From Mesotaenium endlicherianum (taxonomy: Eukaryota), in contig WELA01002258.1 in assembly GCA_009602735.1 (NCBI GenBank), positions 804,244-868,243 of the forward strand: a stretch of 64,000 nucleotides of DNA, given 5' to 3'. The notes beneath the pieces are model-generated. The model searched no databases. It had not been told where the DNA came from and worked only from the letters and a program-made list of their open reading frames with translations. Shown piece by piece: positions 39,501 through 64,000 of this stretch. A program made the position numbers and the translations under genes. The first letter of the stretch is position 1, and every line of letters starts with the position of its first letter.

Positions 39501-41730
39501 TCTCAGAGGGAGCAGCACAGGAGAGGAAGAGAACAAGTCCACGACCTCAGGGAGCGGCCGTACCAGAGGAGAGAAGATCAAGGAAACTGGCAGGCAGGGA
39601 GCCAGAAGCAACAGAGGGAGCTGAGAGGAGCTCCAGATCACCTGCAGGAGGGAAGCGTCCACTAGTGAAGAGAGCCATGGCTCATCTAGACACTCAAGAA
39701 GAGAGAGTGTGCCACCTGCTAGATTTGGCTTTGATGAGTATGTAAGTGTGGCTGAGTTGATGGTTGAGGAGGATGCTGTAGAGAGTGAGGTGGTTTACAT
39801 GGTAGATGACTCAGAGCCCAAGACCTTTGAGGCTGCTATGCAGACAGAGGAAGCAGCTAAGTGGAGAAAGGCTTATGAGGAAGAGATGGAGTCACTGGCA
39901 AAGAATGAGACATGGGACCTGGTAAAGCTGCCACCTGGTAAGAAGGTTGTGGGAGGCAGGTGGATCTTCAGGAAGAAGAGGAAGGCAGATGGATCAGTGG
40001 ACAGATACAAGGCGCGGTTTGTGGCAACGGGCTACTCCCAGACAGAGGGAGAAGACTATCATGAGACTTTTGCACCAGTTGCCAAGATTGCCACAGTGAG
40101 AGTCGTGGCGCAGATTGCCGCAGTGGAGGATATGGAGATGCATCAGATGGACGTGAAGACTGCATTTCTGTATGGAGAGCTGGAGGCGGAGGTCTACATG
40201 GAGCAACCAGAGGGATTCATTGATGAGAAGTTCCCGAAGAAGGTGCGCAAGCTGAAGGAGTCCCTGTATGGACTGAAGCAGTCTCCAAGAATGTGGAACC
40301 AGAAGATAGACTCCTTTCTTCATGGTGAGGGATTTGTGAAGTCCAATGCTGACAGCAGTTTGTATATGAAGGGAGCAGGTGATGACAGGGTGATGCTGGT
40401 ACTGTATGTTGATGACCTGCTGCTCGTTGGCAAGAAGATGGTGGAGGTGCAGAAGGTGAAGGATGCCCTGAGTCGTGCCTTCGATATGAAGGACTTGGGA
40501 GAGGTACAGTTCCTGCTTGGCATTCAGGTGAAGAGAGATAGGGCCAAGAGGATTGTAATGCTGGGTCAGCCAGCCTACTTGCAGACAGTGCTGGAAAGGT
40601 TTGATATGATGGGCTGTAAGCCTGTCAGTGTGCCCCTTGATCCTAAGCACAAGCTGAGCTCGAGTATGTGTGCTAAGGATGAGCATGAGTGGGAGATGAT
40701 GTCTCAGGTGCCCATGAAAAAGGTTGCAGGTAGTATTATGTATCTGATGGTGTGCACACGTCCTGATATTGCTAACATAGTCGGGATAGTGAGTCAGTTC
40801 ATGGAGAATCTAGGCCCTGCACACTGGGAGGCTATGAAGAGGATCCTGAGATATCTCAAGGGGACACCTTGGAGGAAGTGATAGTGTGAGGCTAGAAGGG
40901 TGCAGTGATGCTGACTGGGGAGGAGACATAGACACTCGGAAGTCTACAACAGGTTATGCATTCTCTCTGGCTAAGGGTGCTGTGACCTGGAAGAGCAAGA
41001 GACAAAAGGTGGTGGCCTTGTCGTCCATGGAGGCAGAGTATATGGCAGCCTCACAGGCAGTGAGAGAGGCACTGTGGCTGAGAAGACTTCTGGAGGACCT
41101 GGGCTATGAGCAGAAGAGACCCACTATTATTTTGAGTGATAGTCAGAGCTGCATTGCATTAGGAAAGAACCCTGTTGAGCATGCTAGGAGTAAACATATA
41201 GATATTCAACATCATAAGTGCAGGGAGTGTGTGCTTGATGGTAGCGTAGACTGATAAGATGGTGGCTGATGCCTTGACAAAGGCTGTTCCTAAAGTAAAG
41301 CACCAATGGTGTGCTGAGATGCTAGGACTAAAAGAGATAGTGAGCAAATAGATTAGAATTGAGAGGGAGTGTAGAAAATAAGCAGTCCTAGCTCTAATTG
41401 TTCAGCATGTGCGTTCACATGTGTGGAGGTTGACTGAAGTGTGTGGTCGGTCGAGTCCAGCTAATGTTGGTTGAGAGTGTCGATGTGTAGAGCTTCTGAT
41501 GACTAGGACTATCTATTAGTTCGAGGTAGGTTAGCAGCCGCAAATGTGAATATAGAAGGGCAGAGAAACTTGTAAGGGATACACTTGAGTAAGAAAGAGT
41601 TGAGCCCCCGAGAAAGAGAGTGCTCCTCTTGGTGTCGTGTGCATGCTTATATGTGTTGTGTATGAGCTGCAAGTGAAGTATTTGTCTTGCTATAGAACAA
41701 GTAAGCAATGACAGATGAAGATTTTCAACA
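36534..41730 (+). mobile_element. Full-length Ty1/Copia element, TSD AGATG
   Basis: 361-bp LTRs 36534-36894 and 41370-41730 (about 11 differences by eye). PBS 36895-36906, PPT GAGAGGGAG. AGATG at 36529-36533 and 41731-41735. Confidence 0.97.
36872..41351 (+). pseudogene. Copia gag-PR-IN-RT-RH polyprotein with frameshifts and small deletions
   Basis: Knuckles, WFVDSGAS, LWHQRLGH, RTDNGSEY, QMDVKTAF, YVDD and SDADWGG. Breaks near 39.7, 40.87 and 41.25 kb. Confidence 0.95.
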
Positions 41731-41735
41731 AGATG

Positions 41736-42237
41736 TCATCGCAAGAGAATTGGAAGGCTCAAAGAATCCCAGGAGGTATCCACTCTAGGCAGCCTATCTG
41801 AACGCAACAGAATGCAAATGGCGGCATGCAAAGAACTGATGGAAGTCTTCTTTGATGCTGAGATGGCCAAAGCCAACGATGGCAAAGACGCTATGAGAAA
41901 GCTTATTGATGAAGGTATTTCTCTCATTTTTTATTGCGAAAGCCAGATTATGTTAGCACATAAGCATGGCTAGACTATTGTCAATGAAGTATTGAAGGAG
42001 AATGCTGATAAGGATAGAATGAGCGTCACAGTTTTACAAAGAAAGTGCCAACTAAAGGCAGATAAGAATAAGAAAGCACCAGAGAAAGACGCAGAGAAAG
42101 GAAACAAGAGAACTAGGCAGCAGCAAAACCAACAGAGAAGGGGGGATCCAAACTACAAACCAACATGCTATGCTTGTGGAGTGTTAGGTCACTTGTCTAC
42201 TCATTGCAAGATAATCACTCCAATACCTCAGCAGTAG
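41736..42237 (+). pseudogene. gag: PAT-like gag, 3' part with zinc knuckle
   Basis: CYACGVLGHLSTHC. Confidence 0.75.
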
Positions 42238-42829
42238 CAGAATTAATATTATGGGCAGCAGAAGCAGCTGATGCTCCCACCAGTAAGTGTGGCCAATTAT
42301 CAATAATAGGAAGTGAGTAATTTGATGTATGAGCCTGAAGTAAGGCGAGGCAAATGTGCCAAGAAATGTTATTCGAAATTATATTAGGTCATGGCATCTG
42401 CAATCAATGAAGTGATTAGATTGGCTGAATTTTTTGAGTATCATTGGTATGAAATTATCCTTGTACATATATCCGTTCTTGCATCCTGCTATAAAAAAAT
42501 TGTCAATTATTGCGTCGATAATTGAATAATTTCTAATGTTTTATATTAGAATTCCACACGAATTCTTGTGAAGGTCATATTCTCTTGCAGACACTTGCAA
42601 AATGAATAATTTTTGGAAAGGAACAGCATAATTGCTGCAGCCTCAGGGAAGAAGCATTGTACCCTAATGGGTTAGTGGCTTGTGGGATATTGTCATCTGC
42701 TACCATGTGTGGCAGATGAGGAAACTGATGAGTGGCGGGAGATCCTCAATGATCTATTGGGAAGAAAGGTTGAGGTGAAGGAAGAAAAGAAAGCCAGCTC
42801 CACAGCAGACATTTCTCCAAATATGGAGC

Positions 42830-44330
42830 AAACGTAAGCCAAACACAAATCCTTCTGGATGAAGTGGTGCAGATCTTTGTTTGTAATGTCTGTCATCACT
42901 AAGGAACATAGGCTAGTATGAGCGGATCAGAACCACCCTGCTTTTTCTTTTCACAAACGAAACCACAAGGGAGTAGATATGCACTTGAGTTTTGCTAAGG
43001 AAGCTGTGCAAGAATTATTAACCACTAGAGTTACCATAAGATGGGAGAGAAGAGAACCACCAAAATGTGTTAGCCCACTTAATGTGGCAAAAGGTAGAAA
43101 GCCAAGGCTCATACTAGATCTGAGGTTAGTGAACGATTGGCTAGAAAGGGTCAAGTTCAAGTACAAAGGTCTAGACAAAATAGCAGATACAATTAGGCAA
43201 GTGGAATTCGTTTTCAATATTGACCTTAAGTCTGGGTACCAACATTTACCCATAGACCCAGTTTTTTGGGAGTATCTAGGTTTCCACCCAGAAGGAAAGT
43301 ATTATGTCTTCACCACACTCTCTTTCGGATTGTCATCTGCCCCATACGTCTTCACTAGAGTAATGAAGGAAATTGTGGGAAAATGGAGAAGGGAGGGCAT
43401 TAGGTTTATCCCATATTTGGATGATTTCCTCATAGCATGTGAGACCCCACAGGCACATAAAGAATTGTTGAAGAAAATCTTGGGAGAATTGGCAGCAGCA
43501 GGAATAGTAGTGTATATGAAAAAAGCTCAACTCAATTTGACAAAAAGTCATAAAATTCTTAGGAGTAGTTATAGATACAAGGGACATGTGGATCTATATA
43601 GACAAAGAAAGAAAGCTCAAATTTTTGAGCAAGATCAGAGAAATTCAGAAGATGGGAAACACACAGGGGACAATATTAGCTAGGGAGATAGCTAGAGTAG
43701 CAGGTCAAGTGATAGCCATGAAGCCTGCTCTTGAGATCACGACTGGGATTTATACTAGATACATGTTTCAGATGCTAGCTAAAAAAGTAGACTGGGATGA
43801 GCAATTACAGATAACAGAGGGAGTTAAAAAAGAATTTTTTTTCTTGGAGAATGCCTTTGATCAGTTCAATGGAGCACCTATCAAAGTCCACATAACCCCT
43901 CAAATGCTCCTCTATGTAGATGCGTCAGAGGATGGATAGGGGGGGGTCCTCATAGATATATTCTCCACAGAGAAGTGGCAAATGCAAGGGAAGCTGAGGG
44001 AGGAACAATTAGGCACTTCTTCCACTAGAAGGGAGCTAGAGGGGCTGTTGGCAGCACTATCAACCTGCACACACCTGATCCAAGAGAAACAATTGCTCGT
44101 TAGAGCTGACAACCAGGCATTATACTACATCCTTAGAAGGGGGAGATCTGCAGAATAGGACATTCAAGAGAGTACCAGGAAAATATTTGACCTGGCTAGG
44201 CACTCACACCTGGGGTTCATGATAGAATGGCTGCCTAGAGATCAGAACCAAAAAGCAGATTACTTGTCCAAAATCAAAGAGAAAGATGATTACTGCCTTA
44301 GAGAGGCCTATTTTGGAGAGCTGGAGAGGA
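42830..44330 (+). pseudogene. PAT-like RT and RNase H
   Basis: RLILDLR, DLKSGYQH, FGLSSAP.VFT, YLDD, YVDAS, SSTRRELEG, IEWLPRDQNQKADYLSK. Confidence 0.92.
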
Positions 44331-44734
44331 GGTGGGGTTTGCACACTGTGGATAGATTTGCTTCACCTGCAAATGCTAAGCTGAATAGGTTCAACAGCAC
44401 ATTTTTGTACAAGGAAGCATAATGCACTGATGCATTCTTATGTGACCGGAGTCAGGAAAACAACTATTGTTTCCCCCCCCCACAGTTGACTTTGGCTTTG
44501 ATTGCACATGCAAAGAGATGCAAGGCACAGTGCACCTTGGTGATCCTTAGGTGGGAATCAACTAGGTGGTGGCCTATCATTCAGCCATCTCCAGAGACAT
44601 GGATACCTCAGGTAAAGGACTGGGCCATGCTTGACTACAGTAGACAGTCCTTAGCTCCAGGGAGAGGTACAAAAGCCTTTGGTAATGAAGGCATTCCTTC
44701 GTGCTACATGATGGCATTAAGGATAGTATTCTAG
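44331..44734 (+). pseudogene. DIRS-type MT domain (Dam-like adenine methyltransferase fold)
   Basis: TVDRFASPANAKLNRFNS ... DAF ... NYCFPP ... LVI.RW....WWP. Confidence 0.8.
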
Positions 44735-45732
44735 GGGGCAAAGGGTGTGCAGATGCTATTTTTGCAAGTGACCCTGAGTGCATCATGCTCAACAGAGAAA
44801 GAATGGCCATCTCCTTCTCCTCAGTCAGCAAGAACTCCTTGCGAACTTACAACACCTATTGGAGAAAGTTTGTAGAATGGTGCAAACAGAAAGGATTCAA
44901 GTTTATGCCTGCATCAGAAAAGGTGGCTCCAGCATATATGGTGCGCTTAGTAGCCTCCAAAGTTTCTTTCTCAATTTTCAACCTATCAGCAGCAGCCATA
45001 GGCACCATGCACAAGTTAGTCAAACAGCCTAGCCCATCGATAGGCATTGAAATGAAGATGATCAGAGAGGCAGCAAACAGACAGCTAGGAAAGCCAAAAA
45101 ACACTAAGATGCCTATCTCTCCCTCTAAGATAATCCAGATCTTGGAGTGGTATGCTAGAAAAGATGCTTCCCTCGTTGACTAGATGAAAGCCAATACCAT
45201 AGTGCTTATGTACTACGGGTTCATGCAATATTTTGATTTAGCTCAGCTCAAAATTCATGAAGCAGAGTTAGAAGAGGTGGAAGGCATTCAATTGCTGTGG
45301 GTGTGGTTAGCAAGAGCTAAGAATGATCAGGTTGGAGAAGGAAAATGGATACCCATTCTTCACACCAAGAGCAAGTGGTCTCCAGTGCTTCTCTTCACAA
45401 GACTGATGGCCATGGCCCCCACCTACAAGATGAGAGATTTTATCATTCAGGAAGTCCTACCTTCAGGGAAAGCTCCATCATATTACCTTATCAGAAAATA
45501 GTGTCTAGAGTGTTTCTCCCACGTAGGATTGTCAATTGCAGAAGTAGGAAACCATTCTATTAGAAAGGGAGCAGCAACAGTCGCCGCCTACCTAGGTGTT
45601 CCTGACATAATTATCAATAAGCTAGGGAGGTGGAAATCTGACAAATTCAAACTGGCATATATAGTTGAGATGAATGCCTCAATGCTAGCAGCTGCTAATA
45701 TCATTGATCTACCAGACATTGCCGATAAATAA
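44701..45732 (+). pseudogene. Tyrosine recombinase
   Basis: YNTYWRKFVEWC, AKNDQ, HSIRKGAAT, GRWKS...AY. The first catalytic Arg position reads Q (GFMQ). Internal stops. Confidence 0.9.
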
Positions 45733-46484
45733 CCATATTTTCAGAAGCAAATTCAGGTGGCCTTTAAAAGAAAATTAGCTAAGAAATAAAAAAATAAAAT
45801 TGCTGTACCATGTGCTGTGCAACAGCTTTCTACAATAAGGGTTACAGTGACCATGCTTCTTTGAAAGTAAGCCTGAAGGCAGAGCATAATTAAAAGCTAG
45901 TACTACTTTAGATCAGACCCCTACCATCTATTCCCACCCATTTCCCTTTCTCCCTTCCATCCTCCCTGCCTACCTTACCTCTAACCTATCCTACTCATGC
46001 CCAGCCCCTCCCTTTCCAGCTGCACATGTATGCCATTGTGCAGCTTACTTCACTCATTTTCTCCTCCAAATAAAGCCTATCACTCTTTACTATACTCCAC
46101 TTCATACTATAATATAATATAATACTATATAAATACATTCTATAAAATATATATATATATATATATATATGAATTCTTAAAAGGAGAGAAAGATTATCAA
46201 AATGTAGATTAAATTAGCAATTAAATGTAAGTTTGATAATCTCGAAAGAACAGATTGAGAATTAGGCGGGCTTACACAAGCCCGCCTGCATTCAATTTTA
46301 CCCTAATTTGGAAGTTCTTCAATAGAGATTCGAGAGCTTCAAAGTTCTCGCTCTTCCTCACCTATATAAGCTATGCACTCTACTTCACTCTCCACGCATG
46401 TGCTAAGTGAAGTTAAGAGTGCATACATAACCCATCCACCCACCCACAATAAATAGAATAACAAAGCACCACAAACACCTAAAA

Positions 46485-47512: not shown

Positions 47513-48239
47513 CGCGGAAGGTACCCAAGAGATCATCTCATTCGGTCCACGTGACATGAACTGAGTTTTTTCCCATCGCGTTGACTCAGAAAGGATCTTA
47601 TTTGCCTAGTGTAAATTGGTGTAAATCTGTACGCACCAATTCTTACCAATTATAGTATCAATTGACAAAACATTTCTCCAATTTCTTCCAAGTCGTCATG
47701 CACTTCCAACAGTGTCGAGTCGCACCAAGGTCCGGGAATTCAACATTGAGTCGACCTGGATTCAAACCTGACATCTATTGAATGATCAGCCTCAGGAGCA
47801 ACTCAGGCAGAGCTCGGGAGTAGACCGGACGTTTCCTCCAGAACCACGACAGGATGTTTCATCCAATTACATCCAGTGGCGTCGAGCAGTATATATAAGG
47901 TTCGTGTAAAGCTTCTTCTCGCACAATCGACTCGATTACACACGCTGTTGTTCAGCAGACTGGCCCTGCAAAGGTAACGTCTGGCCCAAAAATTGACCCG
48001 GTGTTTGTGCACGCAAACAAGCTCTTGGAGGCATTCAGGACATACCCCAGTAAGACCTCGACGCGCCCGATTATACATACAGATATAAGAGCGCCATGTC
48101 GTCAACGCATTTTATAACCGCAACAGCTTATTGATTTGACGAGTTCCATAACGATTTATTGTGTTGTTGGTCTATCTTATGTCAACAAAAACGTCATTTA
48201 CAGGACACATATGGAGCAGCCTTACACATCAACATTGGT
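47513..48239 (+). repeat. Left arm (inner part) of the long inverted repeat, with a TATA box
   Basis: Similar to the reverse complement of about 54520-55250. GGCGTCGAGCAGTATATATAAGGTTCGTGTAAAGCTTCT is identical in both arms. Confidence 0.9.
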
Positions 48240-51200
48240 GTGCGCGCAACCGACAGCAGCACTATCGGCTTAGCCCCCGCAGCAGCTGCGCACACGCACC
48301 GCCACACGGCACGCACACACAGCCTCGCACGGCTGGATGCGTACGGACGGGCAAGGCCGGCACTCACGCGTCGGCAGCAGCATCCCGAAGTGCGCTGCGC
48401 GGCCCGATTTTTGACCGCCGTCTTGACAGAGCGCACAGGTCCGCAAACAGCCAAGGCTTAAACCCTGACTGCGCGCAAAACCCTGGCGCATCTGACATGT
48501 GCGCCAATGCATCCGCAACAAGCGCACGCGCCGTGGTAAGCACGCTCTGTACTTCGTCCGAGGCAGGAGGCACCCGCGGGACCGACAGATAGGGGACCCA
48601 GAACAATCGCGCCTCCAGCGCCTCGGTGGCGCCACTTGTCGACCTGGCAGGAGCCCCAGCGTCGTGCATGGCAGCGCTGTCAATACACGTACAGACGTCG
48701 GCAAGAGCATGACTCCGCGAGCGACATGCTCAGAGGAGCGCGACGCCATCTCCACGACCCCAACGACTAGACAACAAAGCGCCGCTGACAGCACGTAGCC
48801 ATCTCGCGACAGCGCAACGTCACTTGGCGAAGTCACAGCGCTGCAGCCGAGCGCACGTCTACCCCATGATGGAGCGTCCACGACTGGAGCTCGAGGAGCC
48901 AATGACAGAGCACCTGCAGGCTCTGCGCGCCCTGCGCTGCTACCTGTCAGCAGCGACAGGATGCGCCTTGACAGGCCGACAGGTGGCAGGCCTCAGGCCT
49001 GCGTAGCCCCGATAGTCGATGTTGCGAGCAGGCACTGACGGGGCCGCGCAACGGCCAGCACAGCCAGCGCAAACGCCGACACATGCGCCTCTGGCCTGTG
49101 CTGTCCTGCTGATGCCAGCAAGGCTCCCCACCGACTGGGCGGAGACAGGTGGCGCCCTGCTGCAAGCCCGCCAGCCTGCCACCCCGATTGCAGCAACAGC
49201 AGCCTTGCGGGCTGCGACACGACAGCCATCAGCTGCTGCTGCTGCGAGCAGCAGGCTCCAGCAGCAGCGGCCACGTGTCACGCACACGTTGGCCGGAGTG
49301 CCGACTTTCGGCAGCGGCGTGGCCAGGTGCACACGCCCATCTGGGCCAGCGCCACGAACTGCGCTGCGCACATTCGGCAGCAGCGCAGCCGGCACAGCTC
49401 CGGCAGCAGCAGCGCACACGCGCCGCCACATGGCACGTGCATGCAACCCGGCATGGCGAGGTTTGTCCGAGTGACCGTGACAGGCATCCCCGCATGGGGG
49501 GGGGGACCTTGGACTGCGCTGCGCAGCCAGATCACCGTTTGGAGCCCCGACGGAGCACTCAAGCCCCCGCACAGCCAGGGCTTAAACCTTGACTGCGCAC
49601 AACATCCCGACGCACGCGCGACTTGGGTCGCCGGGTTCGCAACGTGCGCACGCGCCAAGAAGGGGGCGCCACAAGCTTCGTCCGGGGAGGCCGCACCCTA
49701 TGCTCTGGACGGACCGGCGTCACGTCGAGGGGACGCAAAGAGCAACCTGGAGACGCCACGTGGCAGCCCACCAGCAGCGCCACACACTGTGCACAGCAGC
49801 GCCAGGCACATCAAACAGCGCAGGCGGTGGAGGGCGTCGACAACACCGCTCCAGCATGCGCCGCTGGTCAGCACCACAGCGTCCGCAGCAGCTGCGCACA
49901 GCAGGAGCGTGCACACGTCGACACGTGTCACGCGCGCACGCCCCGGCACAGCCAGCTGCAATCTGGCGGTCGCGACCGACATTCCTGCGCAAGGGAGGGC
50001 ATCCCCAATTGCGGTGTGCGACCCGATTGCCGGTCAGAGCTTCGACGACGCACTCACGGCTGCGCTCAACCAGAGCTTAAACCCTGGTTGCGCACAAAAC
50101 CCTAGCGCACGCCAATTTGCGCTGCCGGGGTTGCGATAAGCGCACGCACCAAGGGGGGTGCGCCACAAGCTTTGCCCGGGCCAGCCGCACTCCAGGCCAC
50201 AGGTTGGCGTTACGAACCGTCCGCCCCATGAGCTACCTGGGGGCGCTACTTGGCAGCCCCGCAGCAGCCTCGGACGCTACGCACATTTGCGCAGGGCGCG
50301 CTTGCGCACGCGGCCGATAGCGCATCTGTGCGACCAGTGCAGTGGGGGGGAAACAGCGACAACGCTACAGCAGCGCCAGCGCCAGGTTCGCCAGCGCCAG
50401 GTGCACCAGCGCTAGCACCAGCGCAAAGTGCGCCACTGCCAGCGCCAGGTGCGTCAGTGCAGCGCCAGGTGCGTCAGTGCAGCGCCTGTGCCAAAGTACA
50501 CCAACGCCACCACTAGTGCCAACGCCAGCGCCAGCGCCACCCGCAGCACCAATGCCAGACGCGCCAGCGCCAGCGCCACCTGGAGCGCCAGCGCCAGNCG
50601 GCACAGCTCCGGCAGCAGCAGCGCACACGCGCCGCCACATGGCACGTGCATGCAACCCGGCATGGCGAGGTTTGTCCGAGTGACCGTGACAGGCATCCCC
50701 GCATGGGGGGGGGGACCTTGGACTGCGCTGCGCAGCCAGATCACCGTTTGGAGCCCCGACGGAGCACTCAAGCCCCCGCACAGCCAGGGCTTAAACCTTG
50801 ACTGCGCACAACATCCCGACGCACGCGCGACTTGGGTCGCCGGGTTCGCAACGTGCGCACGCGCCAAGAAGGGGGCGCCACAAGCTTCGTCCGGGGAGGC
50901 CGCACCCTATGCTCTGGACGGACCGGCGTCACGTCGAGGGGACGCAAAGAGCAACCTGGAGACGCCACGTGGCAGCCCACCAGCAGCGCCACACACTGTG
51001 CACAGCAGCGCCAGGCACATCAAACAGCGCAGGCGGTGGAGGGCGTCGACAACACCGCTCCAGCATGCGCCGCTGGTCAGCACCACAGCGTCCGCAGCAG
51101 CTGCGCACAGCAGGAGCGTGCACACGTCGACACGTGTCACGCGCGCACGCCCCGGCACAGCCAGCTGCAATCTGGCGGTCGCGACCGACATTCCTGCGCA

Positions 51201-52280
51201 AGGGAGGGCATCCCCAATTGCGGTGTGCGACCCGATTGCCGGTCAGAGCTTCGACGACGCACTCACGGCTGCGCTCAACCAGAGCTTAAACCCTGGTTGC
51301 GCACAAAACCCTAGCGCACGCCAATTTGCGCTGCCGGGGTTGCGATAAGCGCACGCACCAAGGGGGGTGCGCCACAAGCTTTGCCCGGGCCAGCCGCACT
51401 CCAGGCCACAGGTTGGCGTTACGAACCGTCCGCCCCATGAGCTACCTGGGGGCGCTACTTGGCAGCCCCGCAGCAGCCTCGGACGCTACGCACATTTGCG
51501 CAGGGCGCGCTTGCGCACGCGGCCGATAGCGCATCTGTGCGACCAGTGCAGTGGGGGGGAAACAGCGACAACGCTACAGCAGCGCCAGCGCCAGGTTCGC
51601 CAGCGCCAGGTGCACCAGCGCTAGCACCAGCGCAAAGTGCGCCACTGCCAGCGCCAGGTGCGTCAGTGCAGCGCCAGGTGCGTCAGTGCAGCGCCTGTGC
51701 CAAAGTACACCAACGCCACCACTAGTGCCAACGCCAGCGCCAGCGCCACCCGCAGCACCAATGCCAGACGCGCCAGCGCCAGCGCCACCTGGAGCGCCAG
51801 CGCCAGGTGCGCCCGCGCCAGCGCTAGCACTTCGCAAGCGCGACGGACCAGGTTAGGGACGCCGTATTGAGAAGTCACTGCGCCTTCCTCGTTCCTTCCA
51901 CTTCCTAGAGACGTTGTCAGCGCCAGCCGCCTCCGTCCTACACACGCTCGTCTCGCCGATCACGTCGATGCAGCTCAGCAACAAGGTCATCTCGTTGGCA
52001 TTGCAATGGGAGCCGGCATTCTCATCTGCCGATCTAGGCGTGACGCTGGAGACGACGCGACAGGCAGCCCAGCTGCTGCTACAGCCCCGCGGTACCAGTC
52101 TATGCACCGCTGCCGGCAGGCCAGCGTCCGACGTCGCCTCCGTAGTGCTCCCCGCGCCCCGCGCGACCTCCGTGCGAGCGCAAGAGGATCAGCAATCTTA
52201 ACGCTGCGTTTCTGGATAATGCGCACGGAATTGTCCTCGTCCTTCGTCCTCGTCCTTGTCCTTCGTCCCGGTTGAGAGTC
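48240..52280. repeat. GC/CpG-rich block of diverged subrepeats, (GCGCCA)n runs and an exact 1209-bp duplication
   Basis: GCTTAAACC(C/T)TG units near 48456, 49580, 50074, 50789 and 51283. About 49390-50588 recurs at 50599-51797 after a single N at 50598. Confidence 0.85.
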
Positions 52281-53024
52281 GGCAATGTTGCTGCGGACGT
52301 ATTATTGCGTGCACATTATTGCGAGGCGGCCTTATACTATCTATTGGGTTGCAGCAGCACTCTCTAGATGACTATGCGTAACTATTATCTCTCCTAATAT
52401 ATTAGTACTTTACTTAGGGCTCAGTTACCTTGCAACACCGCATGCAGGTGAGCATTAATGCCATATTTTAGATGTCTTTGCTTTCACTCAATCACTATAT
52501 GAACTTTGTGGCCCTACTGTGCTACTGTGCTAACCACACATACAATATGTAACTAAATTCCCGGCTTCTTGGGGCTAACTCTTGTACTGGTGCTGAACAG
52601 CTTGCGAGGCGCTTGAAGCCCAAAGGCATGAGAATGATCCAAGTTCCGTCCTCCTAACTCTCACAGAGGCGTAGGCACTTCAATTATGAATCAGAACACA
52701 CGGGATTGAGGCTTGCAGGGTCCTCGAGAGCTTGCTGTGATCTAAGAACGTGGCAGGCTGCAAGCATCAAGATGGGGGGGGGGCTGGAGGCCATCGTAAT
52801 AAATCATAATGTTTTATTTCTTCTTCCAGCATTGGCGATGTACATAATCTTGAAATCCATGTATACGTTAAGACCAGATTTTTCCAAATCTGGATTTTGA
52901 AGTTGCATCAAAGCAACTTTGATTTGACTCCTTATTAGCGGCATGAAGCTCCTATGAAAAGGGTGAGCTTGGTCCCACTGCGGCCGAGACCTCAACTAGG
53001 ACACGAGCAAGTGTTTCCGACACC

Positions 53025-53450
53025 TCAATAGCAGCAATAAGTGCCAGAAAGAGTGAATCTGCTCCCACTGCGGCTTGCTTTCGCCTTGTATATGTAACAG
53101 TTAGTAGACCTTCGCGAAATGTAAAAGATGGCCGTCATTATGTCCACATCTTCCCCGTAGTAGTTTTGATCAAGAACATCATATGTGGCTGCGTAGTAGT
53201 TGGGCAGAAGTCGCAGACGAGAGAACCAAAGGTATCTGCCGGAACTCAGGTAGACAGAGACAGAGTACGAGTAACAGCTATCTCGTGGGGTCAAGCTGCG
53301 AGCAGCTGCCAGGGTGCTCTTCACTTCTTGGACTTCAGCCTGCTTGGCTTCCTTCTTCTTTGCAGTGCCCGCCGTGCGCCTCAAAAGGTCGGTGTCGATA
53401 GAAGTGCGGGAGGTGCACATCTTGAGCGTGGGTGTCTCGCGTGTTCAGAT
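53025..53450 (-). CDS. Possible terminal exon of a small Tyr/Cys-rich protein gene (or pseudogene)
   Basis: 131-aa ORF, preceded by GCTAAG-polypyrimidine-TAG acceptor at about 53451-53495. Downstream of the TATA box at about 54860. No family recognised. Confidence 0.35.
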
Positions 53451-54519
53451 CTACAAAATAACAGAAGAGAATGAGTGCCAAGTTGACTTAGCGTGATGTC
53501 CCTACCATTGAGCATATGATATATTGAACATGTGATGCGGCTTTGGTTCATACACAGCAATGCAGACCATGCAGCTGAACGCTATCAGAACAGAGATAAT
53601 AAACAGGGTCAATCAGGCGTGTGTGGAGACGGGTGGAGGTATCTACTTGGGTGCTAATAAATACCTTTCACATGAGTACATGTAGTGTTCAAGCAATATG
53701 TCTACGCATACACATGGCTGGGTGCCTTAGCAGCCAGCAAACAAACGTTTTTTGTGTTATAAAATAATACTGCGTACGTATTCAAATGTATACTATCAAC
53801 ATAAATTTACGTCTGTAAATGGCCAAGACGTGCATATTTGTGCAGCTAACAACTCATGGACGTTCCGTATAAAATGTATACCTGTACAGGTATGGCCTGT
53901 AAGGCAAGTGACGGCGACATCCTTGCATTCCTCTGCGCTACTCTTTGCAAGAGCTCCATAAAGTGCGCCTGCCAATGACGTGACGATGGTGACACAACAA
54001 TACAAGCAGGTAAGTTCATAGCTTGGGGAGAGTGAAGGGAAGACTTTGCGTCCTGTGTCTGTATTCACACCGACAAGAGCTGTTATTTGATGCGAGAAAG
54101 AAACACCCTCCTGTAGCCCGGACATATTGAATCATTATTGCGTTCTAGCATCCGCTCCTAGACATGTTTGTGTTTATTAATGGGACACAAATAGCGTCAA
54201 CTACTTGCTGAAATCACTAAGAAGAGAAGCTTTGCACCCACTTTCCCACTCGCCAAGGCCATCTTGTTCTTGTGTTCAAACTGCTGCACTGAAAGCACCA
54301 TGAGATAAAAACATCACGTGTCAGCTGATAAGTTACACAGTAACGTGGAAGACAGCACTATCCCTGCCATGACCTCAAGTTGCAGGTAGTCATGCAGACG
54401 TCCTTCACTTATTGCCAAATATGAAAAGAATTGTAAGCAACGAAGCACACCAATTGACCTACAGCTAACTAAGCATGCGCGAAGAGAAACTCCTGGGCTC
54501 ATATTGCGAACGGTGACTA

Positions 54520-55542
54520 CCAACGTGGATGTATAAGACTACCCACATTTAACCTGTAAATGACGCTTCTGTTGACAATTGATAGACCACCAACACGATA
54601 CATCATTATGAGACTCGTCAAATCAACAAGTTGTCGCGGTTATAAAACGCAACGACGACATGGCGCTCTTACCTGAATATGACCGGGGGCGTCGAGGCCT
54701 TGTACCGGGGTCGTGAATGCCTCCAAGAGCTTCTTCGCGGGCACAAACACTAGGTCAATTTTTGTGGCCAGTTGTTATCTTCGCGAGGTCAGTCTGCAGA
54801 ACAACAGCGTGTGTAATTGAGGAGTCGATTGTGCAAGGAGAAGCTTTACACGAACCTTATATATACTGCTCGACGCCACTGGACGAAACTGGATGAAACA
54901 TCCTGTTGTGGTTCTGGAGGAAACGTCCGGTCTACTCCCGAGCTCTGCCTGAGCTGCTCCTGAGGCTGACGATTCAAAAAATGTCAGGTGTGACTAAATC
55001 CAGGTCGACTCGAGTTGAATCCCCGGTCCTTGGTGCGACTCGAGAATGTTGGAAGTGCATGACCTGAGATGGCTTGGAAGAACTGGAGATACTATAATTG
55101 GTATAAACTGGTACCGCCTCTGAAAGCAGTGCATGTGAGTCGTGACATGAGAGTTGTTTGATCTTGAGTCAACGCGGTTGGAACCCATTCCAGCATCTTG
55201 AAATCTCACGTGGACCGATCAGGGCGATGCTTACGCGTGGGACTTTCCGTATGCACCAGCTCGCATGCGTCCTTGTTCTCTTCTCATTTGACAATTGATC
55301 CCAGTAATATAGTCATCGTCAATGGTTTCACAACCGTGATTCTTTCATCGAAGCACCGTAATGAACACCGGGTCAAGCGCAACGCGGCGCCTAGTACTTA
55401 TTGCCTCATGGTCCCTCCTCCACCGCCACTGCTACCTTGTGACGAATTTTCTGCCCGCAGCGTGTACAATATGCGAGTGTGAGCGAGAATGACTTTGACT
55501 TTTAGCAAGTGCATGACCGGATGACAATCGACTGTGACCGAG
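54520..55542 (-). repeat. Right arm of the long inverted repeat, with TATA box (about 54857-54865) and CAG|GTAAG donor (about 54672)
   Basis: Matches 35595-35919 joined to 47513-48239. Confidence 0.9.
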
Positions 55543-56176
55543 TGACCCTCGCTCCGACTCAATTCCTTGCTCTATACGCAGCCTTACGTTCCCCCTAGCC
55601 GCGTTTACCACCTTTCATGGCGATTTGCTCCAGTTGGCAGTGGCTACTGTGGCTTGCTTCGGTTGGCTTTACCAGACTTCAATGCGATGCGTTCTCCTTT
55701 GGGTATCTGAAGCCCGTCCGCTCTACCTTTTTTTCTCTGACCTATTTCAAGGCTGTTTCAAGGTGGTACAAGGAGTGTTCGTTACTAAGATCACCTGAGG
55801 GCTCTAATCAGTAGAAAATCAAATATATGGATGATGTTTAAATTCTTCTAGCATTTGCGGTCGTGCTTAACAGTGTCTGTCCCTTAGCACGTGCATAGCC
55901 TTTCAGCACGTGTGCCTTCGACCTGGTCGATGTGTCGGTCGATGTATCGATGGCCCTCCTCACGTGCGGGCAAACATGGTCGATCAATCTTCGCACGTGT
56001 GTCGGTGACAAGCCTTACCAGGGTTAACCCATCCCTGGGCTCCTGAACTTGCACCATGCAACGATGACCAGTACTCGAGGCATCATTCTCCTTCACCCAA
56101 CTCTCACCGTCTGCTTACCCTGAGATTTTAGCAGAAAATTCAAAAAAATACCTGCCTTGCCTTAATTCCTCCTACA
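55543..56176 (-). repeat. 3' LTR of the DNMT-Gypsy
   Basis: Starts TGTAGG right after the PPT and ends GGGTCA where inverted-repeat homology resumes. The partner LTR is not in the window. Confidence 0.7.
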
Positions 56177-56186
56177 CCCCTCCCTT

Positions 56187-56853
56187 TCAGCTGAGGCGTC
56201 CCTGCCTTTTCTGCTGAAAGCTATTATTTTCCAGCCTTCTAGCTAGGGGTTTAGGGAGGCAGTCAGGACATTCCCATTGTTCTGCCATAATCTCTTCCTC
56301 GCCAATGCAGGATGTGTGCCAACGGGCACCACACTTATCGCAAGTTACCATTGCTTCCTGATCATCCAGCACTTTGCAGCTGGCACAAGGCGTGGCTGGC
56401 ACCAATTCCTCGGGCACAACCCTAATCGTAGGATTAATATTCGGCAAATGGCTTAGCGAACAATTTTGCACGTGGTCTCTCATGGTTTTACCATCGAAAC
56501 CTTCCAGTTCAAACACACCATTGTCAAACGCATGCACCTGAACTGGTGTCGATGGTGGTCTTGGTCTGGCGCTTGCGGTAGAAAAAGTCTCCTTCTTGAA
56601 TCTGCGTCATCTGCAGGCGGTAACTTCCGTCTCGCGTCCTGGCGTAACGCTGCGTATCTCTTTTCTGTGCAATTTTCAGATTGTCCAGTGCAGCCGGCAT
56701 TATGCGCTCAAATAACGCCTTACGGCGTACCATCACCTTTAGCAGTTTATCAGGGCTGTCCAGGTCTTTCACTTGTTTAATCTCCCGCTTGATGCTGTTG
56801 GGCACTACTAGACTTCTGCCAAACAATATCTGATATGGCAAGTAATGCGCCAA
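56187..56853 (-). pseudogene. Duplicated integrase C-terminus and PHD finger (copy 2)
   Basis: CASC..CDKC..WHTSC..WECPDC. A small deletion causes a frameshift near 56535. Confidence 0.88.
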
Positions 56854-56916
56854 GACTTTAGCAGAAAATTCAAAAAAATACCTGCCTTGCCTTAATTCCT
56901 CTTACACCCCTCCCTT

Positions 56917-58260
56917 TCAGCTGAGGCGTCCCTGCCTTTTCTGCTGAAAGCTATTATTTTCCAGTCCTGTAGCTAGGGGTTTAGGAAGGCAATCAGGACA
57001 TTCCCATCGTCCTGCCATAATTACTTCCTCGCCAATGCAGAAAGTGTGCCAACGGGCACCACACTTGTCGCAAGTTACCATTGCTTCTTGATTGTCCAGC
57101 ACTTTGCAGCTGGCACAAGGCGTGGCAGGCACCAATTCCTCGGGCACATCCCTAACTGCGGGATCAATATTCGGCAAATGGCATAGCGAGCAATTTCGCA
57201 CGTGGTCTCTTATGGTTTTACCATCAGAACCTTCCAGTTCTAACACACCATTGTCAAACGCATGTTTCACGCGCAAGATCACTGCACCTGAACTGGTGTC
57301 GATGGTGGTCTTGGTCTAGCGCTTGCGGTAGACAAAGTCTCCTTCTTGAATCCGCGTCATCTGCAGGCAGTAGCTCCCGTCTGGCGTCCTGGCGTAACGT
57401 TGCGTATCTCTTTTCTGTGCAATTTTCAGATTGTCTACTGCAGCCGATATCATGCGCTCAAATAACGCCTTACACGCACCATCACTTTTAAAAGTTTATC
57501 AGGGCTGTCCAGGTCTTTCACCTGTTCAATCTCCTGCTTGATGCTGCTGGGCACTATTGGACTTTCGCCAAACAGTATCTGATATGGCCAGTATTGCGCC
57601 AAGGCAGCCTGTTTGCTGAATTTGTAACCCATAACCAGCCATGGCAGGGCTAGATCCCAGTCACGCTTGTCATGCTCGAGGCAAAACTTGCGCAACGCAG
57701 ACTTAACGATTTGCACCATCCTTTCTGCCAGACCATCTGCTTGCGGATGATCTCTAGACGTAGTGCGATGATCAATGAAGCATCTATCCAAGAGTTTCTG
57801 AAAAGACCCTTGGAACTCAGACCCTTGGTCTGTCAGCACTTCTGCTGGAGCTCCATGACGCACAATCACACCATTGAGTAGCGCTTCTGCGGTCCCCAGA
57901 CTCTCCTTAGCAGTCAGAGGCACGACCTCTATCCACTTAGAGAAATGCTCAATCATGACCATGATATACTTGTTACCTCGCTTAGACAGCGGTAGCTCAC
58001 CTGCGAGATCGCAGCTCCAGCGATAGCCTAGGCCCATGATCGGCAAAGGTTGCAAATGTGGATGTTGCTGTGTAAAACCAGCCTTGACGCGATCACAGCT
58101 TTGGCAAGCCTTGATCACATCTTCACACTGCTGCTTCATGTCCCTCCACCAGTAAGACAGTTCCAAAAGACTATACGTCTTCTTGACACCATAGTGTCCA
58201 GTGTTCTCGTGCATTTCCTGCACAAGAGCTCGTCTCCCGATGGGTTGTGGCACTAACTTC
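56917..58260 (-). pseudogene. Integrase with C-terminal PHD finger (copy 1)
   Basis: H-H-C-C, WSCDLAG, TDQGSEF, ADGLAER, then C4-H-C3 PHD PCASC..CDKC..WHTFC..WECPDC. Confidence 0.92.
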
Positions 58261-58539
58261 TCCTGACCAGTACCTTCAATTTTGAAGAGGTTGTTGCGTT
58301 TCCAGCAAAACCATTCAGCTCAATGGCTTACCTGATCCTTCTCCTTTACTCATAGTCCTTCCAAGAGAATTCCCGTCTTCAGCCACTGCATAGTATCTTG
58401 ATCTTTCCAGATTTCTGGACTGAACAGGAATAGAGGCTCAGCTTCACCTGATGCTACTAATCCAGCCATTTCGGCTCAGCAAGCCACCAACTCTGCTGGG
58501 CTGCTCGGGTGTTCGTCTTCTCAAGCTCCTGTTCTGTCG

Positions 58540-60520
58540 TCTGAAGATGGGTCTGGGTTCCTGCTGAGTCCATTGGCGTCGTTGTTGAGCACTCCTGCTC
58601 TGTGCACCACTGTCATTAGGTACTCTTGTAGCTTAAGAGCCTAGCGAGCTAACTTACCAGTGAGGTCTCCATTCTTCATCAGCCATAGTAATGGTGAGTG
58701 ATCCGTGATCAGCGTGAAGGGTCTTCCCCACAGATACTCTCTGAAGTGTGTGACAGCCCAAACCACTGCCAGCAGCTCTCCTTCGTAGGACGAGTAGTTG
58801 CTCTCCGCTCGATTCTTAGATCGTGAGGCATAGGCAATGACAAACTACTCTCTAGGGCTTGCGGCCTGAGTGAGTATTGCGCCAATTCCCACACGACACC
58901 AGTCAGTGTGCAGATTGAACGGCTTGGAGTAGTCGGGCGTTCGCAAGACTGGAGCTGTTACCAGCCGCTCCTTAAGCTCGTTCATGGCTTTCTCCTGAAC
59001 TTCTGTCCACACAAAAGGCACATCCTTTTCCAGGAGTTCCGTCAGGGGTTTAGCAATTCTACTATAATCCTTCACAAACTTACGATAGTATCCGCTTAGC
59101 CCTAACAGAGCTTTCAGCTTAGACACATTCGCAGGTGCAGGTATCTTATAAATGGCCTCAGTCTTCACTGTAGTGAAACAGATAGATGAAGTACTTATTG
59201 AAATATAATACTTTATCTATTCAAGACAAGGATCTTTGAACACAAGTGGTAGCTTCTTGAAAGAGAGATGGCTTCTTGAAAATTAATATATTTCTGGATT
59301 TTGGCAAGTACAAGAGGGATTCTGGAATGTCTTTCTATGTTCTAGCTCTTGTTAATATACTTGCTAAATAAGTAATTTCTAGGAAGGTGTATGTTAATGT
59401 GTTGGCACCCAACACATCCCAAAACTTGCCACCTCTTTCTAGAATAATGTACACATGTCCTTTTGACCTAAAAATGGCACATTTGACTTTTGCCACGTGG
59501 AGTTCTTCTAGGTCTTTCCTCTAACTTCGAAAATGCCTTAGAAGGTTCAAAGGACATGAACCAAGTCACTAGAGTACCTATTCACACTTGAATCCACACA
59601 ATACTACTTCAAATATATTTGAAAACATTAAAATATATGCAAACTAATATATAATAACTTAAATCACTACATTCACAGCCTGAGGGGACATAGCATTGTT
59701 CCCAATCTCATGTCCTAGGGAAGGCACGTGTGCCTCAAAGAATCTGCACTTCCCTGGATGCAGCTTCATCTGGAATTTCTCCAGGCGTTGAAACACTTGT
59801 TCCAAGTGCTTGAGGTGCTCCTCTATGGTCTTGCTGAATACTACCACATTGTCAATGTATGGTTTAGCAAAATCCAGCCCCTCCAGCACTTTATCCATAG
59901 TCCTCTAAAATATGGCTGGGGCATTTTGCAGCCCAAATGGCATTACTTTCCATTGCCAAAGTTCCCTTTGAGCCCAGAAAGCGGTCTTACCTTGATCTTC
60001 TGATTTCACAGGAATCTGGTTGAAGCCTTGGCGCAGATCGATAATGCTGAACACCTTTCCGGTGGTGGCAATTGCAAAGATCCGCTCCGGTGTAGGCATC
60101 ACATAGCTGTCTGGCTCCGTATAGAGATTCAGTCGCCTATAAATCTCCACACATACGAGTGGCAGTGTAATTGCCGGCCTCGTCCTTTTTAGCGACTACT
60201 ACTTTGGGAGCCCCATGCACTGAGGTGGATTTTCCAATCATGCGGAGTTAATGCAGCTCTTCGCAAGTTTTCTCCACACAGTCCCACTCTGTCTGACTCA
60301 GCTTATGCGGCCCAAGTCTGACTGGGTCATCAGTAGTGAGGGTGATTTCACACATACTGGCACTGGTTCTACCAATCTCCTCTTCAGTAAACGCAAACAC
60401 CTTGCGGTGTTTCTTCAGCAACCTTTCTACTTGTGCTCTCTGCTGGGCTGAGACCATTTTCCCAATGGCAAAAGTCTCAATTTCAGGTTGCTTCTCCCCA
60501 ACAAAGGCATCCAATAGTTG
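58540..60520 (-). pseudogene. RT and RNase H of the DNMT-Gypsy (split by a solo LTR)
   Basis: IDLRQGFNQI, MPFGLQNAPA, YIDN (decayed YIDD), HTDWC, RNRAESNYSSYEGELLAVVWAV. Confidence 0.92.
59169..59671 (-). mobile_element. Family-A solo LTR, TSD TTCAC
   Basis: 503 bp, nearly identical to 27637-28139. TTCAC at 59164-59168 and 59672-59676. Confidence 0.97.
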
Positions 60521-62560
60521 CTATTCTTTGGGTGCAGGTGGGGGCTTTCCGCCCTCATCCTGGCCCTCAAGCTTTTCTGCCTGATTCTTAGGAGGTGGGG
60601 TAGCGGGCTTTGCAGCTTGCTCCTTCATTGCCATAGGCTCTGCAGCCTGTTTCCTAGGCTTTTTACCTTTCCCAATGACACGTTGCCTCTCCTGCGGTGA
60701 GGTGTACGTTAGGCGCCTCCAAATGGGTTGCCTCAGGAACATTTCCTCGTCGACTGCAGTCCAACTGGTCCCGGTTCCTCCTTCTTCACGTGGCCGAGGT
60801 TGGTTTGCCATTGGCCAACCTGCAGGATCTGTCCTAGGGCTGATTACCCAGCCCTACTCTTGCTCAATAATAGCCATGCGGGCGGCAGTCGTGCCATACT
60901 CCTCCCTTGCAGGTGGTGTGTTCGTCCATGCTTGCGTCAACGTTTGCGGCCTTTGAGGTGCCGCTAGTTGTGCGAGGAAAGCATCGTCTGTTGCGGTTAA
61001 GCGCCTGATGGTGTTTCTTAGATCCATCAATTCCTATTCTGGGATTGCAGATGTCATGGGAGCAGGTGCCTCCGGCCCCTGCATCCTAAGATCTGATAGT
61101 TGCAGCAAGGGCGTGTTAATGCCTGGCGGCATACTTATGCCCAATGCCATTGCCCTGCAAATCAAGCCGTCCTCTCCCTCTCTCTGCGGAATTTCCCGCA
61201 GAGGCGGAGGAGGTGGGGCTGTGGTTCCTCGCGGAATGCCCTCTCTCTGAGCCTTCCCCTTATGCTTGACATATCGCTTTAGCATCCTCCTTAAAGATGC
61301 GTTACCCTCACGGGCCACCTTCCTTGGTCTGCTTGCACGACTCTCGGGCTTACCTTGGGCTGTCTCCACTTTAGCAGTGCAGGCAGTCACCTCTTGCCGT
61401 TGCGGCGGTCGTACTGTTGACTTGGGCTCTGCCACTGACAAACTGGCAGTAGGGGTACGGGATGTTAGTGACCTAAGTTCTTCATAAAGATCTGCCGGGT
61501 GTGGTCCCATCAGGTGGTCAGCTACCCAGTCGTCTGTCCTCAACTCCTGTAAGTCAAGCGGATCCAACTCTGGCGTAGGAAAACGTGGAATTTCTTCCCT
61601 GGCGTCCCCTCCATTGTTGAGTGATGGCAACTCCAACTTTGAGAGGCCTTGCATCTCTGCATCCTCTCCCTCCTCTGGCTTCTCAGTTCCAGCAGACGGT
61701 GATTCTTCATCCCCTCGTGTGTTGAGCCTCACCATGTTGATGATGGCTGACTGTAGAGCGAGAGCTGCTTTTGCCACTTTCTCTTCCTTGAGGCAAGGGG
61801 CGTCTGCTTCCAGCAATTGCTCCATGACTTGCCTGGTGATCGACTCACCTGTGCTGCTAACTGTGTCTTGTGGTTGCCCTTTGGCTTCTGGCTCTGAGCT
61901 CATCAGAACAAGTATAGCGGGCAATCTCTTGACCGTCTCCTTCCTGCGTTCTTCAAAAATCACCACCAGACAAATGGTCTTTCCAGACCCTCCTGAATTT
62001 CCTGAATTCTGACTGCATTCTTCGGCCCATTTGCCAATATTGCACTGGCGTTCTTCATATCTTGACGTTACCGCGTCTGGGGATGGGCTTCCGTAGACCT
62101 GGTCTGGGGTCATATTTCGTAACGCAGAAGAGGTAATGTCTTCCCATTCCGGCGCCCTCACAAATATTTGGCTGGAGCGTTCTGCAGATAATGGGGCCTC
62201 CTGTGATTTGCTTACTGCAGCGCTCCCCAAAGGGTTTGCTGCACCAGTTGCCTGGTCTTCCATGGCTACGTCTTCTCGCAGCCTTCGCAGCTCTCTTTCC
62301 AGAGGGTCGTGTAGAGCCGCCATCCGATTGTCAATTTGCGCCAATAGGTCTTGACACCTGGTCAGCTCCACCACTCTGGTTTCTCTGAGTGTTTCTTCTT
62401 GGTCAGCCTCAGCTGCGTCCCTTTCAATACTATGTTCTTTTTGTCGCCAATGCGCTTCTTTGATAGCTCTCTGATCAGAGGTTGGCATCGCATGGACTCC
62501 AATCGTTATTGGTCTCGGCCTGGGCATAGGCTTGTCCGAGAACGTCATCTGCTGCCAAGT
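60521..62560 (-). pseudogene. Long linker of unknown function between DNMT and RT
   Basis: The 523-aa open frame 61034-62605 continues from DNMT motif X. Charged, coiled-coil-like and Pro-rich segments. Confidence 0.7.
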
Positions 62561-63390
62561 CATAATCGTCTCCACCAACCATGTCATGGAGTGATGCCCA
62601 ATCATATTGCCGAATATCTTCCCAGCGTTGTCCTATCCCACCATTGCAACAATTTCTTGTGCAATGGAGTTGGGTATCCCCAGGCACCTTCCCTTCTCTT
62701 CAGCTGTCGGCTCTCTCTACTGAGCTTCTCTGTCGTGCGCATTCTTGACCATTCCTGGTCCTCCATTCACGAATGCGCCGCGTAATCTCCTCCATCTCCC
62801 TCAGGACTTCAATGGACATGCCGTTGGTCCAAAATAGTCTCGCCCGGTGTGAGAGTCCTCTGTCCCTGGCGTGATTGATCAATACATGATGACCCAGGGT
62901 GGAGTCGAAGACCAGCCATGGATGTCCTAGCTTCATCTGGTTATACTCCATCCCTGGATGTCCATTCTCAATCACAAACACTGGTGGGAAGGGATGCTGG
63001 CGTTCCCGCAGCATGCTGATGATTCTCACCATCCATCCCCAGTGTCGTGCTCGCGGGTCATTGAATCCCCTCCTGTTTCCAGCTTGCGAGAAAGGTTGAC
63101 AAGGGAATCCCGCAAAGATCCAGTCAATCCTGTAACCATACAGGTCCTCAAACTTCACATCGAGAATGTTCCCTCCAGCAAGACGCACTAACTTAGAATC
63201 AGTAGGAACCAACGCCTTGAAATGGTACATTTGCCGCATCAGACTCATGACCTCCTTAAATGCTGTGAAAGCACCCGCATCATTGTCCACATACAGCACT
63301 TTGGATACCTGGATACCTCGCTGAATCAGTGAGATGGTTCCAGAACCAAGTCCGGCAAACAATTCCAGCACTACTACTCCTCTCCTTCGA
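62560..63390 (-). pseudogene. C5-cytosine DNA methyltransferase domain within pol
   Basis: Motif I VLELFAGLG, II YVDND, III GNILDV, IV AGFPCQPFSQAG, V DPRAR, VI FVIENG, VIII HRARLFWTN. After a frameshift: IX REPTAEEKGRCLGIP and X KIFGNMI. Confidence 0.92.
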
Positions 63391-63689
63391 AAAGGATCCT
63401 CCATCCTCACAATGCCTTGCGGCAGCGGGTCTACTCCAGGCATCAAATTGGCAGCAGACTTAACTGGATAGGGAACTGGCAGCAGCTCTTGCGGGCCACG
63501 GTCCCTGTTACTCACAGCTTCCAGTTGCTCCATAATCCGAGGTTGCCAAACCAAGGGAGTCGGCATGTTGACGCTGGTGTAGCCCTCCTCTTCGCGTTGC
63601 ATGATGAGGTCATAATGGCTTGGATACCGGTCATTCACACAACAGTCTAGCAGTCCGTAGTTTGCTTCTCCCGAGCAAACCATTTTTAC

Positions 63690-64000
63690 AGGAATTTCTC
63701 CTGTCGGCTGCCGATCTGTCGACTGGTAAGTCACCCTCTGCTTCCGCAGGTCGATGACCATACCCAGGGGAATCAAAGCTTCTGTCCCCAAGAGACCATC
63801 ATAGTTCTCTGCCTCTGTCACCGTGCATTCTATGAGCAGTGACGCCTCCTTAGGTTTCCCAAAGTTAACTGTGATTTTTACAGGCTTGCGGGTAATTCCA
63901 CAAGACTTTGAAATCAGCCCAGATGCAGTCCTCAATTGAAAAGGACTTTGTTTCAGGTCCCTTGCCGTCAATCCTTGAGCTTTCACAGCTCGCTTTCCCA
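63690..64000 (-). CDS. C-terminal half of a retroviral-type aspartic protease, in frame with the DNMT
   Basis: LRTASG flap and YDGLLGTEAL..LGMVIDL motif. The catalytic Asp lies beyond the window. Confidence 0.75.

Follow-up and report, generated by a model that had tools for sequence, protein, structure and literature searches.

A decayed Ty3/Gypsy retrotransposon whose pol carries both a C5 cytosine DNA methyltransferase (DNMT) and a PHD finger was identified on the minus strand of a 64,000-nucleotide stretch of Mesotaenium endlicherianum DNA (contig WELA01002258.1, hereafter the window), running from position 64000 down to about 55543 according to Pfam, tblastn and a three-frame reading. 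The Ty3/Gypsy order of protease (PR), reverse transcriptase (RT), RNase H (RH) and integrase (IN) was recovered with Pfam, tblastn and profiles, with the DNMT between protease and RT and the PHD finger behind the integrase (Table 1). The DNMT has a DNMT3-type fold and retains its catalytic residues, and in the relatives of the element it is under purifying selection and occurs together with a PHD finger. The copy itself is dead, as had been concluded from the letters alone (the sequence-only reading), with stops, frameshifts and a foreign solo long terminal repeat (LTR) interrupting its pol.

The frame at 62700-63998 is open over 432 codons without a stop and extends beyond the window edge. 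Within it, protease-like sequence is fused in frame to methyltransferase motifs I-VIII, as the sequence-only reading had proposed; PF00145 matched residues 210-346 with 56.9 bits against a cut-off of 22, and the translation contains ELFAGLG, GFPCQ, IENG and HRARLFWTN, to which we assign the motif numbers used here. The catalytic PC and the motif VI Glu are indeed kept in GFPCQ and IENG. The catalytic Cys, Glu and Asn and both motif VIII Arg are present, and the frame reading showed the domain to be unrearranged and intronless in the Pol frame. The modeled motif I-VIII segment reached a predicted local distance difference test score (pLDDT) of 88.5, and its best structural match in Foldseek was DNMT3A (E 1e-10), with DNMT3A and DNMT3B as the top matches. 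The family profile matched DNMT3A over its full length at E 1e-20, far ahead of a plant DRM-type entry at 1e-10, HhaI at 3e-10, and DNMT1 at 6e-4. Profile and modeled fold thus support a DNMT3-type enzyme, in line with the likeness first noticed in motif VIII.

The first PHD finger also exceeded its Pfam cut-off (PF00628, 27 bits against 24), has all eight zinc ligands, and is followed by the end of pol about 20 codons further on. The nearest solved structures are the PHDs of CHD4, KMT2C/D, ATXR5, WSTF, KDM5 (KDM5A), and BAZ2 (BAZ2B). An Arg occupies the alignment column that we take to be the methyl-K4 Trp position, and this Trp, lacking in the window PHD, was found in none of the 36 scored relatives. 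Readers of unmethylated K4 have an acidic-wall residue, and readers of methyl-K4 have a conserved Trp (PMC5415848; here and below, published sources are cited for the parts covered). In the window PHD, a Glu aligns with the second Glu of the BAZ2B acidic-wall pair. With an acidic-wall Asp/Glu and no methyl-K4 Trp, the finger falls into the BAZ2/KDM5-PHD1 class and is predicted to read unmethylated H3K4. The earlier suggestion of H3-tail reading is upheld to this extent, as a class assignment by alignment.

Relatives were collected as proteins (P-numbers) and metagenome loci (L-numbers). A first word-based search with the DNMT found no homologue among 954 candidates, and a second found 12, of which only P0007 was a retroelement. 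P0007 aligned continuously through protease and DNMT (E 6e-21), as did P0014 (E 1e-27), a single 2352-residue frame of the order gag-PR-DNMT-RT-RH-IN; a search with the protease-DNMT region of P0007 gave four long proteins. In each of P0015 and P0017, a single frame matched both PF00145 and PF00628 at scores exceeding the Pfam cut-offs. An exhaustive search yielded 926 proteins at E <= 0.001, the best 150 of which were taken further, and 153 proteins were scored with profiles seeded on relatives and the window, with a Pfam check on 5 of them. A DNMT with a retroelement domain was present in 81 of the 153, a DNMT only in 69, and a PHD-DNMT combination in 1, and 2 had no match. No RT, RNase H or integrase was detected in the 80 loci kept from a DNMT alignment of viral contigs, an integrase search of viral contigs found nothing, and an Atlas search with the PR-DNMT frame returned only generic methylase clusters at 0.77.

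The 81 retroelement proteins showed two layouts. In layout A (62 proteins) the DNMT follows RT/RNase H or precedes the integrase, and in layout B, that of the window (19 proteins, including the DIRS-like P0141), it follows gag/protease or precedes RT. DNMT, integrase and PHD were found in one frame in 37 proteins, all of layout A (RT-RH-DNMT-IN-PHD), and a PHD was present in 36 of the 38 proteins that extend beyond the integrase core by 220 residues or more; the combination, each part of which the sequence-only reading had thought rare, is common among these relatives. Integrase was reached in 11 of 19 metagenome loci, 10 of these 11 with a PHD; L094 has layout B, and in the layout-A loci the DNMT ends 95-190 aa before the integrase. 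The catalytic Cys, Glu and Asn were invariant in all 82 typed rows, and the two motif VIII Arg were present in 81/82 and 80/81.

In the integrase tree, for which two further Gypsy integrases from the window served as root, the window integrase grouped with P0014 and P0040 (Shimodaira-Hasegawa-like approximate likelihood ratio test [SH-aLRT], 99), inside layout-A elements. The RT tree, computed without P0141, whose RT looks DIRS-type, placed six layout-B rows together (support 92), and the DNMT trees split layout A from layout B with weak support (85 and 83). All trees were quick searches; one DNMT tree omitted P0141 and P0115 and took 18 of 61 layout-A rows, and the position of the window in the DNMT tree is unreliable owing to its long branch. 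On the simplest reading, the DNMT was acquired once and later moved within pol, in one direction or the other. The protease-DNMT junction is common to the window and its relatives, and the integrases closest to that of the window come from elements of the same layout; the DNMT is therefore a family trait, belonging to the pol of the family and not to a later insertion. Among 91 DNMT pairs from 14 loci, the two closest had ratios of nonsynonymous to synonymous substitution rates (dN/dS) of 0.10 (L093/L094) and 0.14 (near saturation), supporting purifying selection on the DNMT in the relatives; the dN/dS check called for earlier thus came out well for them, the window DNMT itself being unusually divergent.

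On balance we favor, with modest confidence, a mechanism in which an active ancestor methylated CpG in its own complementary DNA (cDNA) and docked its integration complex on nucleosomes with unmethylated H3K4. Pol would be packaged and cut by the protease, leaving the methyltransferase beside RT in the particle, and the new DNA would arrive CpG-methylated. Through the PHD, insertions would avoid promoters with H3K4me3 and go into chromatin where CG methylation is normal. The two modules would act successively on the same cDNA, unlike the single regulated ADD-DNMT3 enzyme. An ADD-like coupling is unlikely in the window layout because DNMT and PHD lie about 1,600 residues apart, and the two would probably end on different processed proteins; the parallel with the ADD-plus-catalytic pairing drawn in the sequence-only reading is loose here and fits better with the commoner RH-DNMT-IN-PHD layout. 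DNMT3 domains of Symbiodinium retrotransposons methylate CG in yeast (PMC5890265).

A number of observations weigh against self-methylation and histone-guided docking, beside the distance between the two domains. The main one, for the branch of the window, is the excess divergence of its DNMT, which has a mean identity of 27% to the 44 others versus 46% among them and is the most divergent of the 45, although the window integrase is average (47% versus 48%). Decay after insertion would hit DNMT and integrase alike, so the excess arose in the active lineage. The window DNMT deviates at three near-invariant positions before motif VIII, and it has lost about 50 residues (about 150 nucleotides) of the target-recognition region, which the relatives have and which aligns in the family profile with the DNMT3A region after motif VIII. 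This gap lies at the same place as the frameshift near 62780, and the loss is therefore probably later than insertion. Extra CpG depletion as a sign of self-methylation was not found relative to four DNMT-less LTR elements of the window, the observed/expected ratio being 0.59-0.61 in PR-DNMT and RH-IN and 0.40 in RT, compared to 0.28-0.59 in those elements. When the Gypsy DNMT of Klebsormidium was tried in yeast, no methylation was obtained, a result called inconclusive (PMC5890265). An acidic residue stands at the acidic-wall column in only 12 of 36 family PHDs. The intact PR-DNMT-RT-RH-IN-PHD frame anticipated by the sequence-only reading was not found among the relatives, and P0014 and P0040, the two layout-B proteins reaching the integrase, end before the PHD position. 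All relatives were found via the DNMT, which leaves DNMT-less sisters uncountable and makes motif conservation partly built in.

The divergence data also bear on a rather doubtful alternative, in which the family enzyme is active but the DNMT was relaxed or altered in the sub-lineage of the window before its death, becoming a non-catalytic DNA binder or acquiring a new specificity. The window and P0014 are 59% identical in integrase versus 31% in DNMT, while DNMT identity is at least 43% in 45 other pairs whose integrases are 55-63% identical; the window end branch in the DNMT tree has a length of 1.76, roughly four times the median, its PHD is the second most divergent of 37, and its spacer between DNMT and RT is about 600 aa longer than in relatives. 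The retained catalytic and motif VIII residues, the confident model fold and the stop-free frame speak against relaxation, and the target-recognition gap, being probably postinsertional, does not count for it. It is less probable still that the DNMT acted on the site of insertion, on the chromatin of the host or on the DNA of invading viruses, with the PHD only an anchor. The predominance of layout A, in which the DNMT is close enough to the integrase to travel with it and the PHD, would suit such a substrate, as would the absence of extra CpG loss, and an anti-viral role has been proposed in PMC6338049, in the part covered as a hypothesis only. In the window layout, however, the DNMT precedes RT and is far from the integrase, and both DNMT positions allow delivery in the particle, which suits cDNA.

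The spacer could also favor the reading that the DNMT came in by later insertion, belongs to a nested element or stems from chimeric assembly. The distance from DNMT to the RT core is 787 aa in the window versus 128-182 aa in 5 relatives, and no usable match to the spacer was found in Pfam, Atlas, the relatives or the loci, the single Pfam match, to a coiled-coil-like family, being below its cut-off. In 666 codons the spacer has 3 stops, where four other frames have 29-31 and one antisense frame has 8, and from motifs IX-X through the spacer to the RT N-terminus there are 6 stops in about 860 codons versus 31-40 in four frames and 12 in one antisense frame, which places the spacer codons in frame with motifs IX-X and the RT start. 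Protease and DNMT share one frame whose junction aligns with several relatives, and in the trees both integrase and RT fall together with elements built in the same order. The DNMT is not bounded by repeats, and the sequence-only reading had named a target duplication or termini of its own as telling against it; the true insertion nearby, by contrast, shows a clear target duplication. An origin by later insertion or chimerism is thus largely refuted and very improbable.

A broader proposal, possible but held tentatively, is that an old, large Gypsy lineage has kept an active DNMT3 writer and an H3K4me0 PHD together, with the DNMT moved between two pol positions and some members bearing an adenine-methyltransferase-like domain. 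Pre-methylated cDNA would be aimed at H3K4me3-free chromatin, rebuilding the logic of ADD-DNMT3, and the window would represent a branch that evolved fast and gained a 600-residue insert, the one case here in which PR-DNMT-RT comes with a PHD. Retrotransposons of this kind carry an enzyme that hosts use to silence them. The 37 naturally intact DNMT-integrase-PHD frames and the two phylogeny-sorted layouts make self-methylation and histone-guided targeting testable without the dead copy.

The window locus is a decayed copy of a known kind, since both Gypsy-DNMT3 (2018) and retrotransposons with a writer plus a reader (EpiLTRs, 2026 preprint) have been described. KnitGypsy-Dnmt3 of Klebsormidium nitens, with Ka/Ks < 0.2 and a proposed methylation of cDNA (de Mendoza et al. 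2018, PMC5890265), likewise has an intronless DNMT3-type domain with kept catalytic residues in a Gypsy Pol frame, under purifying selection as seen here in the relatives of the window. It has DIRS-like repeats; compared by description only, the elements studied here show a PHD and two layouts, and the window copy a very long spacer. The text of PMC5890265 contains neither a PHD nor the domain order, and three of its supplements contain no PHD, though its Fig. 4c and main supplement may show them. The SymbioDIRS-Dnmt3 elements, which share a DNMT3-type domain in Pol and carry the only retrotransposon DNMTs demonstrated in that paper to methylate CG, are dinoflagellate tyrosine-recombinase elements with an independent acquisition, unlike the window element (PMC5890265).

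EpiLTRs of Cymbomonas and Euglena (bioRxiv 10.64898/2026.05.21.726589) similarly unite a DNA-methyl writer and a histone reader in one LTR retrotransposon. Beside DAM and a chromodomain, they carry a DNMT that is the sister of DNMT4, and their authors set them apart from Gypsy-DNMT3; the window element has a DNMT3-type domain and a PHD instead, and Pfam and profiles gave no match to DAM or a chromodomain in it, which places it outside the EpiLTRs. PHDs are known from algal retrotransposons (PMC6673714, PMC9940879, PMC8557442), among them REM1 (cited in PMC6673714 and PMC8557442), with a PHD on Gypsy Pol, and Gypsy-7a_cRei, with the PHD as an accessory domain of Gypsy Pol but, unlike the window element, no methyltransferase listed in the part of PMC9940879 covered. 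In the literature searched, Gypsy-DNMT3 was named only in PMC5890265 and bioRxiv 10.64898/2026.05.21.726589, and neither the DNMT3-plus-PHD pairing nor the two layouts were described, in a coverage that did not extend to Fig. 4c and the main supplement of PMC5890265; nothing on the pairing was present in the covered parts of PMC12344493, PMC11244446, and PMC3350952.

Table 1. Features of the DNMT- and PHD-bearing Gypsy element in the window and an additional domain in its relatives
Feature	Position	Strand	Evidence
Aspartic protease, C-terminal part only	63600..64000	-	Aligns with protease region of P0007, P0014, P0018; own profile 24 bits
C5 cytosine methyltransferase, motifs I-VIII, DNMT3-type, in frame with protease	62777..63389	-	PF00145 E 2.9e-15
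Methyltransferase motifs IX-X, next frame, two stops	62522..62776	-	tblastn with P0014 residues 1266-1344, E 4e-4; alignments
Long spacer of low complexity, sharing the frame of DNMT motifs IX-X and RT N-terminus	60476..62521	-	Stop counts
Reverse transcriptase, stops and frameshift near 60141	59677..60475	-	PF00078 E 8.6e-11 and 1.4e-9; 47% identity to P0014
Solo LTR of a chromodomain Gypsy family, foreign to the element, TG...CA, TTCAC target duplication	59169..59671	-	Repeat comparison, flanks
RNase H region with stops	58512..59163	-	PF17919 E 1.4e-15; tblastn
Integrase (H2C2 zinc finger, core, C-terminal region), frameshift near 57465	57140..58415	-	PF17921 E 8e-16; PF00665 E 1.8e-12
C4HC3 PHD finger at integrase end; stop at 56919-56917	56980..57123	-	PF00628 E 4.5e-6
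Tandem duplicate: integrase tail, second PHD (56250-56393), stop, polypurine tract, LTR start	56123..56854	-	89% identical to 56853-57603
Polypurine tract (56187-56177) and probable 3' LTR (56176-55543, TG...CA)	55543..56187	-	Sequence, single copy
Extra C-terminal domain of relatives	L084:9864-10226, L086:11344-11772, L092:10920-11345, L096:5031-5456; also P0015-P0017		Weak likeness

The domains that the sequence-only reading had placed downstream of the DNMT on the same strand (RT, RNase H, integrase and a C4HC3 PHD) were recovered by Pfam and its polypurine tract was confirmed, while the LTR is only probable, resting on one copy, with the 5' LTR and gag beyond the window. The TG at 56176 follows the polypurine tract directly, CA stands at 55544-55543, and a different repeat starts at 55542; no repeats were seen in 55543-56123. 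The protease part had no match in the Pfam search, and alignment to P0018 placed its catalytic DSG just past the window end. The integrase core is 59% identical to that of P0014. The solo LTR (503 bp) between RT and RNase H shares 95.6-97% identity with two LTRs located at 21459-21963 and 27636-28140.

Tandem duplication of the integrase tail, PHD and polypurine tract gave the element two PHDs. An NG86 ratio of 0.30 (112 codons) suggested selection-driven divergence of the two PHD copies, which a neutral simulation rejected; 18 synonymous changes were seen versus about 17 expected (216 codons), so the differences fit neutral decay. Transitions per site in the tandem duplication were 0.156 in CG, 0.159 in CHG, and 0.104 in CHH, a weak context bias that was not used as evidence.

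Many RT-RH-DNMT-IN relatives end in an extra domain weakly like N6-adenine methyltransferases. Its identification as such was not accepted, as the likeness was only weak (PF02086 in 2 of 6, best E 3e-4) and no solved structure matched below E 0.2; if it is real, such relatives carry two writers and a PHD, like EpiLTRs. P0141, a 1290-aa frame, combines a C5 DNMT with a DIRS-type RT/RNase H and a DAM-like NPPW motif and is DIRS-like with two methyltransferases. In P0059 a DNMT of the family type is preceded by a PHD, and no retroelement domain was detected; this protein might be domesticated or a host gene.

Other elements were found elsewhere in the window. On the minus strand at 21460-28140 lies a chromodomain Gypsy, nearly intact, whose LTRs are 98% identical and whose pol is open over 1230 aa; it belongs to the source family of the solo LTR. 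On the plus strand, a Copia element with 96% identical LTRs lies at 36525-41730. A decayed DIRS-like element with a zinc knuckle, RT and RNase H occupies 41700-46400 of the plus strand; from its motifs, it presumably also has a DAM-like methyltransferase segment and a tyrosine-recombinase-like frame. If PMC6338049 is right, the presence of this element weakly points to a host outside the tracheophytes. At 47675-55089, inverted repeats of 565 bp (83%) surround GC-rich sequence that holds a nearly perfect tandem duplication of 1.2 kb; the whole may be a terminal-inverted-repeat element.

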